A stretch of 5,645 bases of DNA from a virus. The stretch lies in the IMG/VR virus record IMGVR_UViG_3300020030_000032, positions 1 to 5,645 of that record, one strand, 5' to 3'. Each line of letters opens with the position of its first letter. Positions within the stretch are counted from its first letter, which is position 1. Of this stretch, positions 1,618-5,645 are shown piece after piece. A program made the translations under genes and the position numbers. The notes under the pieces were generated by a model. It ran no database searches and was not told the DNA's origin. It saw only the letters and a list, made by a program, of their open reading frames with translations.

Positions 1618-1645
1618 AGCCGGGGCAAAACCCGGCTATTTTAAT
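1618..1645 (+). terminator. Hairpin plus T-rich tract between VP1 and VP2 (attenuator-type terminator and/or structure bridging the SD to the VP2 start)
   Basis: agccggg (1618-1624) pairs with cccggct (1631-1637): a 7-bp GC-rich stem with 6-nt loop gcaaaa, followed by attttaat. It sits 12 nt after the VP1 stop. AGGAGG lies at 1611-1616 just 5' of the stem, and ATG 1646 lies 8 nt 3' of it. Confidence 0.55.
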
Positions 1646-2440
1646 ATGTTTCAAATCATACCAGCACTCATGACCGGGGCGAAAGTACTGGGCGGAGTAA
1701 GCAGCCTCATAAACGCAGGAACAGGCATTTTTAACGCACTCAAAGGAACCTCGGGAAGTGGCAGCTCCTCAGCTGACAGTTACAACAAAGCGCACGGCGA
1801 AGGCGGCTCTACCATGACGGGAGAGAGCGGAGTTGACGTAGATACGACGAAAAATCTAGGTCAATACTTCCTCCAGCAGGGTCAGCAAGCAGCCGGAATG
1901 CAGGCACTGCAAAACAATAAGAATTCACTTGCGGCTCTGGGCTTAAACACCCTTGGAGCAATACAGCAGGGCATTTACAACCGTATCCAGCAGGACGCAG
2001 CAATGTCTTACAACTCCGCAGAGGCAGCAGCCAACCGGGCATGGCAAGAGAGGATGAGTAACACAGCATATCAAAGAGGCATGGCAGACATGAAAGCAGC
2101 AGGGCTTAACCCTATACTTGCCTATGCACAAGGCGGCGCAAGCACACCGACAGGCGCACACGGAACAATCGGGCAAAGCTCCATAAGCGCACCAAATGTT
2201 GGGACGCAATCAGCAGGTATGCCCACAACATCCGGCACAGTAGCCAATTACAGCAAAACCAAGGCCGAGAGCTGGAACTGGACAGACTCAAGCGGCGAGA
2301 TGCACAGCAGCGGCTATAACAGCTATCAGACCGACTTCCCGGACTTGAGCCAGTGGCTCAACCAAAACAACAACAGCGGCAAAAAAACGACAATGGGTGG
2401 CGGTAGAAGCCACGGAGGAGGAGCAGGAAGGGGTAGATAA
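1646..2440 (+). CDS. VP2: Minor capsid / DNA pilot protein VP2 (H-like)
   Basis: 264 aa. Features: a Gly-rich hydrophobic N-terminus ([29 protein letters not shown]), a Q/A/N-rich middle, the conserved block [29 protein letters not shown] typical of gokushovirus VP2, and a Gly/Arg tail. It sits directly after VP1, the standard position. Confidence 0.88.
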
Positions 2441-3463
2441 ATGAGTTGCGCAAGACCACTCATCAGAGTATACAATCCAAATGACCACAATATAACGGGG
2501 TCAATCATGACCTTAGAGACATACCGGGAGAGAACACACAATCCAACAGCAACATATGAGAGCATCGCATACCGTACAGACGTAATGCTGCTGCCATGCG
2601 GAAAATGTCTGGGGTGCAGACTCAGACAGCGGCAGGACTGGGAAACGCGAATGCTGATGGAGTCAAAAACGCTGTCACCGGTATGGTTTTTGACCCTAAC
2701 ATGGAATCAAGAGTATGTGCCGGGTATGATAAGAGCAACCGGCGAAATTATAAGAGGCGCAGTGCATCAGTGGACAACCGGAGACGCGCCGGAAGTAGTG
2801 CAAATCCTACTGCAAGAAGACATGGTGCGCTTTAACAAGAGACTGCGCAAAAAACAAGAAATGTCCAATAAATGGGGCTTAGACCTGAGATATTTTTATT
2901 GTGGCGAATACGGCGAAAACACGGGCAGACCACATCATCACGGCATTTATTATGGTTTGGAGATACCAGACCTCAAGAAAAAAAGGGGTGATAATCCGTA
3001 CTTTGAAAGCGAAGAGATAAACAAAATCTGGGGCATGGGCAATGTCATCATCGCAGAGGCATCACCGGAAACAATGGCTTATGTAGCAGGGTATGTAACC
3101 AAAAAGACATACAGTAACGACAACAAAAGATACAGAGAACTAGGGCTGACGCCGCCTTATTGCTGCATGTCGAGGAATCCGGGCCTGGGCTACGACTACT
3201 ACACGAGCCACAAAGAAAAGATGTACGCAGATGATGGACTATACTTTAACGGCAAAAAAAGACCAATACCGAGGTACTTTGATAAAAAGTACGAGAGTGA
3301 GCAACCGGAAAAGCTGTGGGAGACAAAACGTAAGAGACAGGAGAGTGCAATCAATGCACTAAAGCTCAAGATGAGCAATACAGAGCTGACCATCGAACAG
3401 GAAGCAAGAGTCGAGGAAGAGACAAAACAACAGAGGTTTAGAAAAGCCAGAGGGCTATTATAG
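2441..3463 (+). CDS. VP4: Replication initiation protein VP4 (HUH superfamily rolling-circle endonuclease, phiX174 A-like)
   Basis: 340 aa. Cys cluster LPCGKCLGCRLRQRQDW. RCR motif 1 FLTLTW (nt 2687-2704). HUH motif RPHHHGIYYG (His codons 2933-2941). Twin-tyrosine motif AYVAGYVTKK (Tyr codons 3080-3082 and 3092-3094), comparable to YVAKYVNK of the phiX174 A protein. ATG follows the VP2 stop directly (taaATG), with purine-rich ggaagggg 6 nt upstream. Confidence 0.93.
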   Translation: MSCARPLIRVYNPNDHNITGSIMTLETYRERTHNPTATYESIAYRTDVMLLPCGKCLGCRLRQRQDWETRMLMESKTLSPVWFLTLTWNQEYVPGMIRATGEIIRGAVHQWTTGDAPEVVQILLQEDMVRFNKRLRKKQEMSNKWGLDLRYFYCGEYGENTGRPHHHGIYYGLEIPDLKKKRGDNPYFESEEINKIWGMGNVIIAEASPETMAYVAGYVTKKTYSNDNKRYRELGLTPPYCCMSRNPGLGYDYYTSHKEKMYADDGLYFNGKKRPIPRYFDKKYESEQPEKLWETKRKRQESAINALKLKMSNTELTIEQEARVEEETKQQRFRKARGLL

Positions 3464-3467
3464 TGTC

Positions 3468-3515
3468 AGTGGGCCTAATCCTATCAAGAAGAGGATTAGG
3501 CCCACTATTTATTTT
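3468..3515 (+). terminator. Rho-independent-type terminator after rep (perfect 15-bp hairpin plus T-rich tail)
   Basis: agtgggcctaatcct (3468-3482) and aggattaggcccact (3492-3506) are exact reverse complements, with 9-nt loop atcaagaag, followed by atttatttt (3507-3515). It begins 5 nt after the VP4 stop. Confidence 0.75.
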
Positions 3516-3566: not shown

Positions 3567-3732
3567 GTTGAAAACCATAAATTTGAAACATAACATCGTA
3601 AAAAATAAGCATATTTCACGGTTGAAAAGTTTGTTGAAAACTTGTTGAAATGTTGAAACACTTTACCAGACTAAAATCTATTTCGTATAATGATGTTGAA
3701 AAGTATGTTGAAAATGTTGAAAGTGTTGAAAA
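3567..3732 (+). repeat. Iteron-like array: 9 direct copies of GTTGAAA(A), all in one orientation, in a non-coding region
   Basis: Copies start at 3567, 3621, 3633, 3644, 3652, 3695, 3707, 3716 and 3725, and seven are preceded by T (TGTTGAAA). There are two 38-nt clusters of four (3621-3658 and 3695-3732). Their first 20 nt differ at one base (GTTGAAAAGTtTGTTGAAAA vs GTTGAAAAGTaTGTTGAAAA). Cluster starts are 74 nt apart. A degenerate copy tttgaaac is at 3582-3589, and a partial copy aacttgttg at 3530-3538 matches aacttgttg at 3639-3647. Confidence 0.85.
3662..3691 (+). promoter_or_regulatory. Candidate sigma70-type promoter located between the two repeat clusters
   Basis: TATAAT at 3686-3691 is a perfect -10. 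TTTACC at 3662-3667 gives an 18-nt spacer, or TTACCA at 3663-3668 gives 17 nt. Each is a 4/6 match to TTGACA. Host promoter rules are unknown, so this is tentative. Confidence 0.35.
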
Positions 3733-3867
3733 CTCGCACAGCGAGTAAGGAAAATCAATTTAGCTGAGCTCCGCCGTAGCTCCGCACAGCAAGCGCTTAC
3801 GCGTTCCAGAATAGAGGAGCAGGGGACGGAAGCTGACGAAAAAGTTTCAAAAAACTTTAAAAAAATC

Positions 3868-3896
3868 TTGGCTTTTTTAGAAAAATATAGTATAAT
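3868..3896 (+). promoter_or_regulatory. Candidate sigma70-type promoter for the small-ORF cassette
   Basis: TTGGCT (3868-3873), a 17-nt spacer, then TATAAT (3891-3896). An A-tract, UP-element-like sequence lies immediately upstream (aaaaaactttaaaaaaatc), together with a 7-bp AT inverted repeat aaagttt/aaacttt (3841-3847 / 3852-3858). It is about 29 nt upstream of ATG 3925. Confidence 0.5.
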
Positions 3897-3924
3897 AAAA
3901 TCACAGAAAGGAAAGATAAAAACC

Positions 3925-4110
3925 ATGATACACATGTATGAAATCCGAAAGCTCGAAAGAAGCGGAAAAGCAACCATCATCCAACAGCTAACAGCAGAAC
4001 CGAAGTCAGCGAAGCAAACATTCAAAAAATACGCGGAAGAAAACCCGGGAATCTACTCTCTGTACCAAGTTCACCGCGTAAGAGTATGTTTCACAGAAGA
4101 GGAGAATTAA
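3925..4110 (+). CDS. Hypothetical small protein, 61 aa (orphan, no recognisable family)
   Basis: This is listed ORF 3868-4110 trimmed to its first ATG (MIHMYEIRKLERSGKATIIQQL...). The listed start 3868 is a TTG inside the predicted -35 box. There is a weak SD (aaagga at 3907-3912, 12 nt upstream). The protein is hydrophilic with no TM segment. Coding status rests on ORF length in an AT-rich, stop-prone context and on tight packing with the next ORF. Confidence 0.5.
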   Translation: MIHMYEIRKLERSGKATIIQQLTAEPKSAKQTFKKYAEENPGIYSLYQVHRVRVCFTEEEN

Positions 4111-4112
4111 AA

Positions 4113-4295
4113 ATGAGAAAGCCTAGACTGAACAAAAACGCCATAGCAAAACTTAAAACCTATGGATACGCAGAATGCGGCAAAAACTACTACGAACTGA
4201 AAGACTACATCGACACAGAAGAAAATCATAAAACGGCGCTTGAATGGACAAACACAAGAACAGGAGACGCAAAAGCATTCGATTGGGAAAAATAA
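4113..4295 (+). CDS. Hypothetical small protein, 60 aa (orphan)
   Basis: ATG 4113 is preceded by GAGGAG (4099-4104, 8-nt spacing) and starts 2 nt after the upstream stop (taaaaATG). Sequence: MRKPRLNKNAIAKLKTYGYAECGKNYYELKDYIDTEENHKTALEWTNTRTGDAKAFDWEK. The alternative listed start ATG 4086 lacks an SD. A terminator hairpin follows immediately. Confidence 0.55.
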   Translation: MRKPRLNKNAIAKLKTYGYAECGKNYYELKDYIDTEENHKTALEWTNTRTGDAKAFDWEK

Positions 4296-4298
4296 ACT

Positions 4299-4324
4299 AA
4301 GAGGGCTTGACAAGCCCTCTTTTT
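4299..4324 (+). terminator. Rho-independent-type terminator closing the two-gene cassette
   Basis: aagagggctt (4299-4308) pairs with aagccctctt (4312-4321): a 10-bp stem (9 bp if the closing pair opens) with loop gac. It runs into a T-run (tcttttt through 4324) and begins 4 nt after the stop at 4295. Confidence 0.7.
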
Positions 4325-4353
4325 AATACAATAAAAGCAGAAAGGGAAATAAA

Positions 4354-4560
4354 ATGTACGACAGAGCATATTATCAACTGTATAAAGGATACAGAGGGCC
4401 GGAAACACCGAACGAATGTGAATACTTCATCCGAAAACTTTACAGACAGCTTAAAAAAGCGTATACTGTAGAAGAGGCGAAAGCCATCATAGAAGAAATC
4501 TACAAATACAGGAGCCAAAAGGCGGAAATGGAGATGAAACAGTGGCAATCATCAGTGTGA
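4354..4560 (+). CDS. Hypothetical small protein, 68 aa, Tyr-rich with a helical-looking C-terminal half (orphan)
   Basis: ATG 4354 with aggga (4343-4347) 6 nt upstream. Sequence: MYDRAYYQLYKGYRGPETPNECEYFIRKLYRQLKKAYTVEEAKAIIEEIYKYRSQKAEMEMKQWQSSV (10 Tyr in 68 aa). No TM segment and no family recognised. Confidence 0.5.
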   Translation: MYDRAYYQLYKGYRGPETPNECEYFIRKLYRQLKKAYTVEEAKAIIEEIYKYRSQKAEMEMKQWQSSV

Positions 4561-4661
4561 AGGAAGTCAAGAACGCCATCAAAATCATGATGGAAATCCT
4601 GGAGAAACTGGACGCGATTTATCACGCGTTGCACGACAAGGAGAATGACGGCAATGACTAA
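4542..4661 (+). CDS. Possible very small ORF (39 aa from GTG 4542; 34 aa from GTG 4557; 24 aa from ATG 4587) filling the gap before the basic peptide gene
   Basis: Frame open from 4455 to TAA 4659-4661. GGAG (4530-4533) lies 8 nt before GTG 4542. Translation: (M)AIISVKEVKNAIKIMMEILEKLDAIYHALHDKENDGND. Its stop overlaps the next start (ATGACTAA), a coupling-type junction. Not in the supplied track, no homology recognised, and the start is uncertain. Confidence 0.25.
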   Translation: MAIISVKEVKNAIKIMMEILEKLDAIYHALHDKENDGND

Positions 4662-4773
4662 ACGTACCAAGATGACCAGCGGTAAAGACAAAAAGGTCTT
4701 TACCCAGACGGCAAAAAAGACCAAGGCCGTCAACGTAAGCCCGAAAAACATGAGAGGAGGTACCAGACTGTAA
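4654..4773 (+). CDS. Small basic DNA-binding/packaging peptide (gokushovirus ORF8-like, functional analogue of phiX174 J), 39 aa
   Basis: Hand-translated and below the track cutoff: MTKRTKMTSGKDKKVFTQTAKKTKAVNVSPKNMRGGTRL. It has 9 Lys, 3 Arg and 1 Asp. The C-terminal MRGGTRL resembles the RGG-x-R-[LF] end of chlamydiaphage-type ORF8 peptides as I recall them. AAGGAG at 4638-4643 is 10 nt upstream. Its stop overlaps the next ATG (TAATG). Confidence 0.75.
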   Translation: MTKRTKMTSGKDKKVFTQTAKKTKAVNVSPKNMRGGTRL

Positions 4774-5015
4774 TGCTGAAACGTTATTATGCAATCTATG
4801 ACAAGGTGGCCAAAACCTTCAGCGGCCTCTTCGAGCAGCAGAACGACGCAGTTGCAAGCAGGCTCTTCGAAAGCCAGCAGAAAAACAAAGACAGCTTTAT
4901 CAGCGTCAAGCCGGAGGATTTCCGGCTGCACTACGTCTGCACGATGGAGGACGAGACCGGCGAAATCGTCGATAACACCAACATGTGCGTATGCGAGGGA
5001 AAGCCCAATGAGTGA
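4773..5015 (+). CDS. Conserved microvirus small non-structural protein, 80 aa (equivalence to chlamydiaphage VP5 uncertain)
   Basis: MLKRYYAIYDKVAKTFSGLFEQQNDAVASRLFESQQKNKDSFISVKPEDFRLHYVCTMEDETGEIV... fits the pattern I recall from many gokushovirus genomes (IYD-K-A--F---F---ND--A-R-F ... PEDF-L ... D--TGEI). AGGAGG at 4755-4760 is 12 nt upstream. The position just upstream of VP3 is typical. Confidence 0.75.
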   Translation: MLKRYYAIYDKVAKTFSGLFEQQNDAVASRLFESQQKNKDSFISVKPEDFRLHYVCTMEDETGEIVDNTNMCVCEGKPNE

Positions 5016-5511
5016 GTTTCGGAGCGCATACAGCGGACAGTTACGGCATACGAGCCTGACCGGCAACGGCCACGAGCCTAAGTATGAGTACAGGGTGACA
5101 GACGAGGGACGGGAGCTGGTAAAGACCGGCGAGACAGACGTCTATGCACTCATCCAGAGCAGACTGGATGAAACCAAAATCGAAAACATCATCAAGCGGG
5201 CAACATACGACCCTACCGCATTGGGTAGTCAGGACTGGCAGACCAGCGAGACGATGACCGATATTTCGGACGCACCGACAAACTACCACGAGTGGTACGG
5301 ACGTATCAAGGACGCAGAAGCAGAGTTTGACAAGCTGCCCATCGAGATTAAGAACAAATGGGACAATGATGTAGAAAAGTACATCATGGCCTACGGCACC
5401 AAGGAGTGGGCGAGCAAAATGGGCATTTCGACGAAAACAAGCGATGCAGCACAGGCTAATCAGAGCGAGTCCAAGGACAAAATGCACAAAAATAAGGAGG
5501 TGAGTGAGTGA
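5008..5511 (+). CDS. VP3: Internal scaffolding protein VP3, 167 aa
   Basis: This is the in-frame internal ATG of listed ORF 4789-5511, with gaggga (4995-5000) 7 nt upstream. Its start overlaps the upstream stop (ATGAGTGA). Sequence: MSEFRSAYSGQ...DVYALIQSRLDETKIENIIKRA...DISDAPTNYHEWYGRIKDAEAEFDKLPIEIKNKWDNDVEKYI.... The acidic, helical character, the LP-EI-K-F/W-N block and the position directly upstream of VP1 match gokushovirus VP3. The listed 73-aa N-terminal extension is an Arg/Ser-rich alternative frame of the 80-aa gene. Confidence 0.85.
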   Translation: MSEFRSAYSGQLRHTSLTGNGHEPKYEYRVTDEGRELVKTGETDVYALIQSRLDETKIENIIKRATYDPTALGSQDWQTSETMTDISDAPTNYHEWYGRIKDAEAEFDKLPIEIKNKWDNDVEKYIMAYGTKEWASKMGISTKTSDAAQANQSESKDKMHKNKEVSE

Positions 5512-5645
5512 ACCGCAACAGTGAAAACAGATTCGCGGAAAATCCGCAGGTCGGAGTAAGCCGCAGCCGATTCCAGCGCAACAGCGACAACAAAACGACC
5601 TTCAACACCGGCGACCTGATTCCGGTCTATCTGGACGAAGTACTG
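5508..5645 (+). CDS. VP1: Major capsid protein VP1, N-terminal part (GTG start), continuing at nt 1 across the circular junction
   Basis: GTG at 5508-5510 is the first start codon after the in-frame TGA at 5505-5507. AAGGAGG at 5494-5500 is 7 nt upstream. GTGA overlaps the VP3 stop. Translation: (M)NRNSENRFAENPQVGVSRSRFQ.... From 5525 onward this duplicates nt 1-121. Confidence 0.88.
   Translation, partial: MNRNSENRFAENPQVGVSRSRFQRNSDNKTTFNTGDLIPVYLDEVL
5525..5645. repeat. Terminal redundancy, copy 2 (identical to 1-121)
   Basis: Exact 121/121 identity to the window start. Confidence 0.95.

Follow-up and report, generated by a model that had tools for sequence, protein, structure and literature searches.

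A gut gokushovirus genome with a probable modular slot for small accessory genes between conserved expression signals

Microviruses dominate many gut viromes and, in the passages of PMC9239249 drawn on here, are regarded as nearly free of accessory genes, with little gene exchange. What are the small genes that follow the replication-initiator gene in the genome described here, and do they form a unit of their own? The source is a gut gokushovirus, a 5.5-kb ssDNA phage. The window (the whole stretch of 5,645 nucleotides that was analysed) is a complete circular genome of 5524 nt with a 121-nt terminal redundancy, a circularity that a preliminary description of the same DNA did not record. That description saw a self-contained, moron-like cassette of orphan genes: a promoter, two packed frames with an internal Shine-Dalgarno (SD) sequence, a terminator and a third, Tyr-rich frame. 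All of these features are present, at the coordinates listed in Table 1. As we argue below, the words ‘self-contained’ and ‘orphan’ do not hold, and a slot for swappable small genes under conserved signals, with cargo that acts on the host, seems to us on balance the best overall explanation.

In the window, VP4, the replication-initiator gene, is followed by an iteron-rich intergenic region and a promoter (P1) with its 5'UTR and SD, and about 400 nt further by a hairpin (T1). Pfam and PHROG profiles recognise VP1, VP3, VP4, VP5 and a J-like gene. In the same searches orfA, orfB, orfC and orfD have no significant match, which separates them from the VP1-5 and ORF8/J families, as the preliminary description held for its three frames. 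Searches with the four proteins and with whole family alignments against Pfam, PHROGs and PADLOC returned nothing significant, nor did the orfA, orfB and orfC families match any PDB sequence profile. The three frames are short and rich in A (41-47%), and no GenBank relative has them annotated. Their GC content (orfA 0.425, orfB 0.393, orfC 0.406) is indeed the lowest among all coding regions (VP4 0.459, VP1 0.543), that is 0.39-0.43 against 0.46-0.54 in core genes; the intergenic region next to them (0.35) and orfC, itself a conserved gene (0.41), are just as low. They are also hydrophilic, as first described: the maximum 19-residue Kyte-Doolittle mean stays below zero (A -0.14, B -0.54, C -0.29), and no transmembrane-like stretch was found in any of the three by this measure.

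Table 1. Features between VP4 and VP5 in the window (positions are those of the whole stretch)
Feature	Coordinates	Strand	Description
A-rich tract	3840..3867	+	UP-element-like, with short inverted repeat AAAGTTT/AAACTTT (3841-3858); read directly
Promoter P1	3868..3896	+	TTGGCT (3868-3873)-17-TATAAT (3891-3896); scan match, 10/12
5'UTR	3897..3924	+	Conserved, with Shine-Dalgarno AGAAAGGAAAG (3905-3915); upstream alignment across loci
orfA	3925..4110	+	61 aa; first cargo module; small family, predicted beta-beta-alpha-beta, restricted to gokushoviruses
orfB Shine-Dalgarno	4099..4104	+	GAGGAG, within orfA 3' end, 8 nt before orfB ATG; read directly
orfB	4113..4295	+	60 aa; second cargo module; invariant MRKPRL N-terminus, predicted one helix and four-stranded beta-meander
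Hairpin T1	4299..4324	+	Conserved intrinsic-terminator-like element; 10-bp stem, 3-nt GAC loop, then T5 (stem-loop 4299-4321)
Possible promoter P2	4307..4332	+	Putative, overlapping T1; TTGACA, then TACAAT (4327-4332), 14-nt spacer here
orfC	4354..4560	+	68 aa, 10 Tyr; SD GAAAGGGA at 4340-4347; conserved gene of the clade
orfD	4542..4661	+	39 aa, GTG start, GGAG at 4530-4533; absent from the preliminary description
J-like gene	4645..4773	+	42 aa, basic DNA-binding protein; phrog_10695, E 4.9e-9; kept in relatives
VP5	4773-5015		Abuts the orfC-orfD-J string

We begin with the signals that frame the small genes. A promoter scan of the window by itself is weak (10 sites vs 5.1 expected), and it is because P1 and its 5'UTR recur in many independent genomes that the promoter stands beyond chance. 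Across these gokushoviruses, in about 30 loci, the consensus reads TTGACa-17/18-TGnTATAAT, and with its downstream part TTGAC-17/18-TGnTATAAT-ATAATCAMAGAAAGG. A comparable A-run lies upstream of the -35 element in about 30 related loci. The promoter first described, with its A-tract and inverted repeat, is thus found again well beyond this genome. In 34 aligned upstream regions P1 stands before the leading slot gene, be it A, B, X70, Cys55 or W59, and is missing in two (L047, L050); the motif ATAATCAMAGAAAGGAAGGTG is likewise kept 5' of the first slot gene across loci. By its spacing and conserved position, P1 has the marks of a real sigma-70/sigma-A-type promoter. In relatives without the hairpin it is the only promoter identified upstream of the downstream genes. 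If P1 is the principal promoter of the phage, as it may well be, the slot genes would lie nearest to it and would probably yield the most abundant transcripts.

The terminator first noted at the other end is equally well preserved. Across 27 loci, 98.9% of the alignment cells in the T1 stem pair and compensatory changes affect 6 of the 10 pairs, a covariation score reached by none of 500 shuffles. The hairpin recurs after most cargo types and is absent in Cys55-type genomes. Its T-run is five residues long in the window against 7-12 in most relatives. Judged from a structure kept in evolution, T1 qualifies as an intrinsic (Rho-independent) terminator, and it may attenuate transcription into the morphogenetic genes in the manner of the leaky phiX174 terminators. 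Its apex carries TTGACA (4307-4312), with TTGAC invariant in 27/27 loci, and 17 of 28 loci have a -10-like hexamer exactly 17 nt past TTGAC(A/G). Within the clade of the window this spacing varies from 14 to 18 nt and tracks the length of the T-run. A second promoter, P2, overlapping T1 is possible on these patterns, and in many lineages T1 would then also carry the downstream promoter, with the -35 element in the hairpin apex. Given the short T-run and 14-nt P2 spacer in the window, the downstream genes here probably depend on read-through from P1, in which case the A+B unit would not be transcriptionally self-contained. Filamentous phages have an ssDNA origin that mimics a promoter; a complementary-strand origin of this kind was considered for T1 and appears unlikely, because the -35 would fall within the loop and the -10 in DNA that does not pair.

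What lies between the two signals changes from genome to genome. P1, the 5'UTR and the hairpin are kept in about 30 gokushovirus loci irrespective of the gene between them, and genomes with 84-96% identical VP4 hold other genes, or remnants, at the same place. The window carries A+B; relatives carry A+B, B+A, A alone, B alone, A with an M15 peptidase, a Cys-rich 55-aa gene (Cys55), other small families or decayed deletion remnants, the small genes being about 55-70 aa long. Among the remnants are MKNL-stop with an internal deletion of Cys55 (L004) and the 3' end of Y66 (L010), and a truncated A occurs in L003; the genomes with remnants were assembled from metagenomes and carry the flag UNVERIFIED, so that what they say for dispensable cargo depends on assemblies of uncertain viability. 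This pattern also decides against ‘self-contained’: the promoter with its 5'UTR and the hairpin stay whatever the cargo, and P1 is the one promoter seen for the downstream genes where the hairpin is missing.

A tight pair of genes could still be a functional pair. The 2-nt gap and the internal SD, both as first described, suggest co-translation, and the A-B order recurs in L027, L040 and L058-L062, which is what a toxin-antitoxin-like or otherwise obligate two-protein system would look like. Against this, about 21 loci have A but not B (A is alone in L013 and L021) and about 17 have B but not A, while the two stand together in 9, once in reversed order (L041). Since A and B themselves served as the queries that found these loci, the counts carry a sampling bias. 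At least five other genes are seen as partners of A, the histories of A and B differ within A-B genomes (57% and 83% identity, respectively, to L058), and no toxin or antitoxin matched in PADLOC, Pfam or the PDB. We therefore regard the pair system, one of the roles proposed in the preliminary description, as very improbable. A second proposal, that the proteins bind the adjacent GTTGAAA array, fares no better, because the array is there whatever the cargo: 5-9 copies are found in most genomes whose slot contains X70+B2, Cys55 or nothing but remnants in place of A and B.

The borders of the modules can be read from the alignments. Junctions fall at 3733, 4108 and 4342-4352. Nucleotide similarity to B-only genomes begins at 4108, which places a module junction between A and B. 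Identities to other genomes form a mosaic. Compared with L058, VP4 is 84% identical, A 57%, B 83% and C 90%; L048, which lacks A, shows 96% identity in VP4, 60% in B and 90% in C; and compared with L057, A is 86% and C 91% identical while another MKKPRF-type gene replaces B. On this sequence evidence the slot modules are exchanged gene by gene. Altogether, conserved P1 and T1 signals of the genome backbone very probably flank variable cargo in a modular accessory slot. The term moron-like keeps part of its force, since a promoter, two packed genes, a terminator and accessory cargo are all there; the promoter and terminator, however, belong to the backbone and are not borne by the cargo. Our literature search for gokushovirus promoters and terminators, or for a described variable slot between VP4 and VP5, returned nothing specific.

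Are the three frames genes at all? Short, A-rich frames left unannotated in every GenBank relative could be chance openings in non-coding DNA, and all three recur in many independent genomes, which lifts them beyond chance. The orfA family comprises 43 homologous protein clusters from contigs no longer than 6 kb, with homologues in 6 GenBank and 18 IMG/VR genomes, while the gene is absent or truncated in GenBank close relatives; the orfB family comprises 28 clusters, with homologues in 1 GenBank and 23 IMG/VR loci. Frame length stays constant across divergent sequences that number from dozens to hundreds, start codons (that of orfA in its family alignment) and SDs are conserved, and median dN/dS is 0.35 for orfA, 0.31 for orfB and 0.24 for orfC. 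The preliminary description had named frame decay in the closest relatives, or absence of purifying selection, as an outcome that would tell against its reading; all three frames are under purifying selection. AF2 models of A and B reach a pLDDT of about 91 (90.7 and 90.9). Chance frames are therefore a practically negligible explanation. The frames are not orphans either, with dozens to more than a hundred homologous clusters each in other microviruses.

The families have no visible kin outside this group. A, B and C lie nearly all on microvirus-sized contigs (about 5-7 kb), and 185,579 species genomes of bacteria and archaea contain neither B nor C, nor prophage copies of them; that scan covered these two families, the A alignment being too diverse for it. 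No orfB relative was found in bacterial or archaeal genomes. An exhaustive HMM search of 1.84 billion representatives with the orfA profile gave 31 matches, most of them 51-97 aa long and aligned across most of the profile; the rest, long proteins matching in multiple short stretches, are probably low-complexity noise, and no link to a larger or annotated protein emerged. Foldseek searches of the A and B models against the PDB gave no match with E <0.1 or TM >0.5-0.6, so that confident folds stand without a significant PDB neighbour; orfB lacks a Pfam or PHROG match as well. Against BFVD, the sole match of the orfA model is an uncharacterised Microviridae protein of the same family. Among the candidates rejected are phage p56 (the Ung inhibitor) for orfA, where the Foldseek match was not significant, and a Pur-alpha repeat for orfB, which ranked at the top and was likewise non-significant. 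Sequence evolution and predicted structures show A and B to be genuine proteins with a fold, subject to purifying selection and confined to microviruses.

The third frame of the preliminary description belongs elsewhere. It exists and is Tyr-rich, yet orfC is found at full length (65-90% identity) in all 9 GenBank close relatives that span the region, in 4 of 6 further IMG/VR close relatives and in Logan/JGI loci spanning it, and it overlaps orfD; its place in the cassette thus falls away. Every close relative with this gene-cluster type has it. In two others (L035, L050) a 75-aa family, F75, replaces orfC just upstream of the J-like gene, and hhalign relates the two with a probability of 69% (E 4.5e-5). 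The orfC family holds at least 140 protein clusters, and the protein is probably helical. In GenBank KT264799 the orfC homologue is labelled ‘VP5’, and the true Phage_ORF5 gene sits downstream of it. orfD shares 19 nt with orfC and 17 nt with the J-like gene, is 79-91% identical in close relatives, and its family (MALISIKDVKQAI...) also occurs in distant gokushoviruses. orfC and orfD are part of a conserved, overlapping orfC-orfD-J core string leading into VP5 and are not slot cargo. The survey of relatives, which the preliminary description had proposed, finds the cargo present in some close relatives and replaced or absent in others, and orfC conserved.

What the cargo does has to be judged without a guide from homology: profile, PDB and Foldseek searches gave no activity-suggesting homologue or structural neighbour for the slot proteins. 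One view is that A, B or both are small nucleic-acid- or polymerase-binding regulators of phage replication or transcription, acting at P1, at T1/P2 or at the origin. The two genes adjoin an origin-like region, and A (41-54% identity across distant lineages where VP4 shows 33-45%) is about as conserved as the core genes VP4 and VP1, a level that fits a role in the phage cycle better than one in an arms race. orfB has its invariant basic N-terminus, a feature common to a second family (MRKPRF/MKKPRF) at the same position in L001, L002 and L057, and the Pur-alpha repeat mentioned above is among its top-ranked, non-significant matches. On the other hand, P1, T1 and the iterons are kept in genomes that lack A, B or both, no helix-turn-helix, ribbon-helix-helix or other DNA-binding signature was seen, and both proteins are near-neutral in overall charge. 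We consider regulators of this kind unlikely. A lead apart from this argument is the predicted fold of orfB, a helix with four strands, which may resemble that of small phage RNA-polymerase-binding proteins such as Xp10 p7; proteins of this type are not among the 50 Foldseek matches listed for orfB.

The neighbourhood of the M15 peptidase raises another possibility, that the slot is a lysis locus in which A, B or both are non-membrane lysis effectors or accessories replacing the peptidase of other lineages. A lies directly upstream of the peptidase, or one gene away, in the same slot in L015, L017-L020, L024 and L034, and in L022, L031 and L033 a hairpin stands between the two; the window, for its part, has no lysis gene recognisable by Pfam or PHROG. 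Roux et al. suggested that the M15 peptidase serves as an endolysin, and they observed that gokushovirus M15 peptidases often adjoin an unknown ORF (PMC3394797). Yet A, B and C have no hydrophobic segment, which excludes a holin or an E-like membrane protein, and Pfam, PHROG and Foldseek gave no similarity to a cell-wall enzyme or known lysis protein. Moreover, A or B is found alone in the loci counted above, and L004 and L010 retain only remnants in the slot. A lysis module strikes us as improbable.

Content as hypervariable and lineage-specific as that of the slot could also serve superinfection exclusion, that is, slot proteins that block secondary infection by related microviruses. The known microvirus case, which Kirchberger and colleagues reportedly described in 2021 (PNAS), is a hypervariable region of temperate microviruses; by that account it lies inside the pilot protein VP2 and not in a separate gene slot. 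The slot proteins are soluble, with no envelope-targeting signal, and since no prophage copies of the C or B families turned up in the genomes scanned, the lineage looks strictly lytic, a life style in which exclusion benefits less. We rate this role as quite improbable.

Our best guess, a tentative one, is that the cargo proteins are dispensable, promoter-proximal factors of host interaction, for counter-defence or host takeover. Each would be dispensable, turn over quickly and act on the host singly, not as a pair. The slot genes resemble an Acr-like locus in being small, hypervariable and promoter-proximal, and general searches for anti-defence homology (Pfam, PHROG, Foldseek against PDB and BFVD) found nothing. 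A bolder version of the slot reading, possible and on the unlikely side, would have a fixed cargo slot heading the main operon, with P1/5'UTR and T1 (doubling as the P2 -35) as both expression signals and recombination landmarks. Between them at least eight unrelated small families (A, B, MRKPRF, X70, Cys55, Y66, Z55, W59) and the M15 peptidase would be shuffled gene by gene, the small proteins being counter-defence or host-takeover effectors. If this were true, the slot would open an unexplored repertoire of such effectors in ssDNA phages.

Several uses follow from the slot itself. In the window and its relatives, an ssDNA phage of 5.5 kb has a defined site at which small genes can be swapped while the signals for their expression are conserved. 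The rule gives a simple way to find microvirus accessory genes missed by annotation (A, B, C and D are unannotated in GenBank relatives). It also yields a small collection of proteins, each about 60 aa long and with a confident fold model, that have no known relatives and are candidates for anti-defence, takeover or lysis screens. In addition, anyone engineering synthetic gokushoviruses would find in the slot a natural site of insertion that comes with its promoter and terminator. All this is of limited practical weight until the host is known and a function shown.

How does the slot compare with known systems? A moron, in the concept of Hendrix and Juhala, is an independent promoter-gene-terminator unit between backbone genes of tailed dsDNA phages. 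The likeness lies in the promoter, short cargo and intrinsic terminator, in cargo present or absent among close relatives, and, as far as the equally low intergenic region and orfC allow, in a GC content below that of the structural genes. In gokushoviruses, however, the promoter and terminator are backbone features at fixed positions and the cargo alone changes, whereas the whole unit, signals included, is not present or absent together among relatives. P1 probably also feeds downstream essential genes, and the carrier is a 5.5-kb ssDNA phage for which no link to lysogeny was found. An integron shares with the slot a fixed, promoter-led cargo site and differs in that no integrase or attachment site was seen here. 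In phiX174, few constitutive promoters with leaky intrinsic terminators set gene dosage. The window shares the one-strand gene order and a promoter followed by partial terminators, including a terminator-like hairpin after VP1 (1618-1637); we know of no variable cargo slot in phiX174 and of no phiX174 terminator with a -35 hexamer in its hairpin apex.

Closer to the presumed function, a conserved early regulatory sequence before variable small genes has served as an anti-defence hallmark in archaeal viruses (Bhoobalan-Chitty et al. 2024, PMC11065993). The gokushovirus slot resembles these sets in its conserved strong promoter motif before variable small genes. This is an analogy only, with other viruses and hosts and no Aca-like regulator found in the window by Pfam. 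Closer in descent, M15_3 peptidase insertions are known in Gokushovirinae and Alpavirinae (Roux et al. 2012, PMC3394797). They use the same interval between VP4 and VP5/VP3, and orfA homologues are the unannotated ORF directly upstream in many of these loci. The window, in contrast, has no peptidase. Homologues of its cargo are confined to microviruses; the peptidase, by comparison, came from bacteria or dsDNA phages. Finally, the parts of Kirchberger et al. (2022, PMC9239249) that we draw on describe small microvirus accessory proteins of about 65 aa on average, with no function assigned, alongside peptidase genes. The slot families, A and B among them, match this class in size and in their patchy spread across lineages; to what those parts describe, the present genomes add the fixed slot, its conserved promoter and terminator flanks and the gene-by-gene shuffling between them.

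Nt 1-121 of the window recur exactly as nt 5525-5645; the window is therefore a circular genome of 5524 nt, circularly permuted. All genes lie on the plus strand. In GenBank the window is nearest to gut gokushoviruses recovered from the faeces of humans, pigs and dogs, at 83-86% identity over 82-87% of the genome. The terminator-like hairpin directly 3' of the VP1 stop (AGCCGGG-GCAAAA-CCCGGCT, then a T-rich tail) is analogous to the post-capsid terminator of phiX174.

Features of the window, in order
Feature	Position	Strand	Remarks
VP1	ends 1606	+	runs across the window-end junction
Terminator-like hairpin	1618-1637		
VP2	1646-2440	+	
VP4	2441-3463	+	replication initiator
Intergenic region	3' of VP4		460 nt, GTTGAAA repeats
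Inverted repeat	3468-3506		perfect 15-nt arms, 9-nt loop
GTTGAAA stretch	3621-3735		
GC-richer stretch	3733-3867		between iterons and P1
Promoter P1	3868-3896		TTGGCT-17-TATAAT
Small-gene run	intergenic region to J-like gene	+	
orfA	3925-4110	+	
GAGGAG	4099-4104		
orfB	4113-4295	+	
Hairpin T1	4299-4324		stem-loop 4299-4321, then T5
Predicted promoter P2	4307-4332		overlaps T1
orfC	4354-4560	+	
orfD	4542-4661	+	39 aa, GTG start; SD GGAG at 4530-4533
J-like basic protein	4645-4773	+	phrog_10695
VP5	4773-5015	+	Pfam Phage_ORF5
VP3	5008-5511	+	Chlamy_scaf

The preliminary description had read P1 to orfC as a self-contained accessory cassette of orphan small genes. Its elements are in place: the promoter, the 2-nt gap between orfA and orfB, the GAGGAG, the hairpin with its T-run, 10 Tyr among the 68 residues of C, hydrophilic products, and a GC (0.39-0.43) below that of every other coding region. 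A promoter scan of the window is not compelling by itself (10 sites against 5.1 expected), and we judge the features real because they are conserved in relatives. A, B and C are also unlike the standard microvirus proteins, with no Pfam or PHROGs match, but they are not orphans. In a collection of 5.8 billion proteins, and leaving out the window's own entry for orfA and orfB, there are 43 homologous clusters for orfA (61-86% identity), 28 for orfB (51-83%) and at least 140 for orfC. Homologues are near-constant in length, and nearly all sit on contigs of ~0.5-7 kb, which are whole or fragmentary microvirus genomes; a few orfC homologues lie on 8-16 kb contigs, which may be concatemer assemblies. 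Unannotated homologues were found by tblastn in further gokushovirus records (more distant orfA homologues in five, 41-54% identity; orfB in one, 62%), and IMG/VR adds 18 orfA and 23 orfB loci. The frames are conserved and under purifying selection (median pairwise Nei-Gojobori dN/dS 0.35, 0.31 and 0.24 for A, B and C). AlphaFold2, run with family alignments, gives confident small folds for A (beta-beta-alpha-beta, pLDDT 90.7) and B (a helix and four-stranded meander, pLDDT 90.9). A, B and C are genes.

To compare gene content, 18 query proteins were mapped by tblastn onto the first 56 related loci fetched, and then onto six more. The interval from VP4 to the J-like gene divides into two zones, and the one directly after the intergenic region (zone 1) is combinatorial in content.

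Gene content of zone 1 (X70, Cys55, Y66 and MRKPRF/MKKPRF are other small-gene families)
Content	Loci
A+B	window, L027, L040, L058-L062
B+A	L041
B alone	~17 loci, among them L045, L048 and L051 (close relatives)
A alone	L013, L021
A then M15 peptidase	L015, L017-L020, L024 and others
A + Cys55 (Cys-rich, 55 aa)	L023
Cys55 alone	L005-L008
X70 + MRKPRF type	L001, L002
A (86% identical) + MKKPRF type	L057
Truncated A + Y66	L003
Remnants only	L004 ('MKNL-stop' and Cys55 with an internal deletion), L010 (Y66 3' end)

The close relatives with B alone match the window at 93-96% in VP4, whereas their B is merely 60-62% identical. Nucleotide similarity to the closest relatives stops at ~3722-3732 and restarts at 4342-4352; in B-carrying relatives it restarts exactly at 4108, and in A-carrying genomes it spans ~3856/3881 to 4110 or 4324. 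These breakpoints place module junctions at gene boundaries and indicate separate histories for A and B. On this comparative evidence, orfA and orfB occupy a modular cargo slot.

Several loci show further variation. The MRKPRF/MKKPRF family holds the orfB position (L001 4163-4360, L002 1689-1886, L057 651-875) and shares with orfB a basic N-terminal motif and the spacing of conserved residues; it is probably a distant orfB homologue. Its L057 member is internally duplicated, with WHWVLQRAE twice. L003 has, between hairpin and orfC (~3970-4045), an extra, strongly hydrophobic ORF starting MVDVIQSIAIMLLSIAVIINAK, absent from the window and possibly encoding a membrane or lysis protein. VP5 fragments are inverted or duplicated in L007 (857-1045) and L011 (1-178), both 'partial genome' records, and are probably assembly artefacts.

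The signals flanking the slot do not follow its cargo. Across 34 loci, a single consensus (A-run, TTGACa, 17-18 nt, TGnTATAAT, ATAATCAMAGAAAGGAAGGTG, ATG) describes the 100 nt that precede the slot's first gene, be that gene A, B, X70, Cys55 or W59 (a further family); two of the 34, L047 and L050, lack P1. Alternative 'MWYN...' N-termini in some database entries are the translated -10 box of P1. The alignments thus assign promoter and hairpin, conserved across different cargo, to the backbone, and a self-contained unit is not supported. P1 would be the principal promoter; in Cys55-type genomes it is the sole promoter identified upstream of the downstream genes. A Firmicute-like host is suggested by features seen in ~30 loci, namely the extended -10, an A-tract upstream and strong Shine-Dalgarno sequences (AAAGGAAGGTG); the Faecalibacterium-like M15 peptidases that Roux et al. 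(PMC3394797) noted fit with this.

Of the first 56 loci, 28 carry the hairpin T1, as does L058. Its stems vary (for example GGGC/GCCC, GAGGC/GCCTC, CCGGAG/CTCCGG, CGGGG/CCCCG) around an invariant apex, TTGAC. Over 27 sequences 98.9% of cells pair, six of ten pairs show compensatory double changes, and the covariation score was reached by none of 500 shuffles. TTGAC(A/G), which is TTGACG in three loci, is followed at exactly 17 nt by a -10-like hexamer in 17 of the 28 loci. This spacing points to a second promoter, P2, overlapping the terminator and predicted in the window and in L022, L031, L033, L036 and others. In the window's clade the spacing (14-18 nt) tracks T-run length (5-10), which is predicted to set terminator quality and promoter spacing alike. 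The window, with T5 and a 14-nt spacer, would express its downstream genes by read-through of a weak T1. Cys55-type genomes lack the hairpin, and their cargo abuts orfC.

orfC does not belong with the cargo. It is full length in all nine close GenBank relatives spanning the region (65-90% identity), occurs in L045, L048, L049, L051 and L057-L060, and joins an overlapping string with orfD (19 nt) and, through orfD, the J-like gene (17 nt). orfD had been missed; its family (MALISIKDVKQAI...) is widespread in gokushoviruses, unannotated in the GenBank relatives and without match in Pfam or PHROGs. A 75-aa family, F75, takes the position directly 5' of the J-like gene in L035 and L050, both close relatives, as well as in other lineages. 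Homology of C and F75 is plausible but not proven (profile-profile probability 69%, E 4.5e-5, 29 columns). In L003 (KT264799.1) the GenBank CDS named 'VP5' (4049-4255) is an orfC homologue; the true Phage_ORF5 gene lies downstream (4468-4707) and is not annotated as VP5.

Upstream of the slot, the window has nine GTTGAAA copies, most in two clusters, and close relatives match their stretch at 92-95% identity, a higher conservation than in the adjoining coding DNA. A slot protein had been proposed as the array's DNA-binding partner. This is contradicted by most genomes without A and B, which keep the array at 5-9 copies; since it is present whatever the cargo, a core protein, for example VP4, is its probable partner. 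The inverted repeat directly 3' of the VP4 stop (AGTGGGCCTAATCCT / AGGATTAGGCCCACT), conserved in L004, L006 and L010, could be a VP4 terminator or an origin-associated hairpin. The GC-richer stretch holds short palindromes (CTCGCACAGCGAG, GAGCTCCGCC..GCTCCGC) and is shared with L050 and L057 only; at most other loci its place is taken by another conserved motif, CGCACGGCGCACCGCGCCTAsCGCATGAC.

As to function, searches of the slot-region proteins against Pfam, PHROG and PADLOC, and by sequence against the PDB, returned no match, and Foldseek found no significant neighbour of A or B in the PDB. In BFVD the only match, to A, was a Microviridae protein from the family itself, also uncharacterised. 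The A profile, run in an exhaustive HMM search, retrieved the small family; the few long proteins that also came up match over short stretches, probably of low complexity. A search of 185,579 genomes of bacteria and archaea found neither family B nor family C, and so gives no prophage or host clue. The independent distribution of A and B contradicts an obligate pair, including the toxin-antitoxin-like pair once proposed. The proteins are small and soluble, their genes are the promoter-proximal ones of the operon, and they are exchanged by recombination gene by gene and can decay; this fits dispensable host-interaction factors, for example counter-defence or takeover proteins, a reading we hold tentatively. 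Regulation of the phage cycle would suit the conservation of A, about that of core genes across distant lineages, yet we think it unlikely. The recurring A-M15 adjacency speaks for a lysis-related role, which is less likely still; a membrane lysis protein is contradicted, as the proteins have no hydrophobic segment. Superinfection exclusion seems the least likely of these four roles. The slot, whose significance is for now limited, is of moderate interest as a discovery rule and engineering site.

Small accessory proteins averaging ~65 aa, as well as peptidase genes, are reported from microviruses (PMC9239249), and M15 peptidases beside an ORF of unknown function from gokushoviruses (PMC3394797). 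Our literature search found no description of a fixed slot, of conserved P1 and T1/P2 flanks or of gene-by-gene shuffling. Promoter, gene pair and terminator had been called moron-like. A tailed-phage moron is inserted as a complete unit together with its signals, whereas here P1 and the hairpin are backbone; what stands is the architecture, which works like the morons and plasticity loci of tailed phages.
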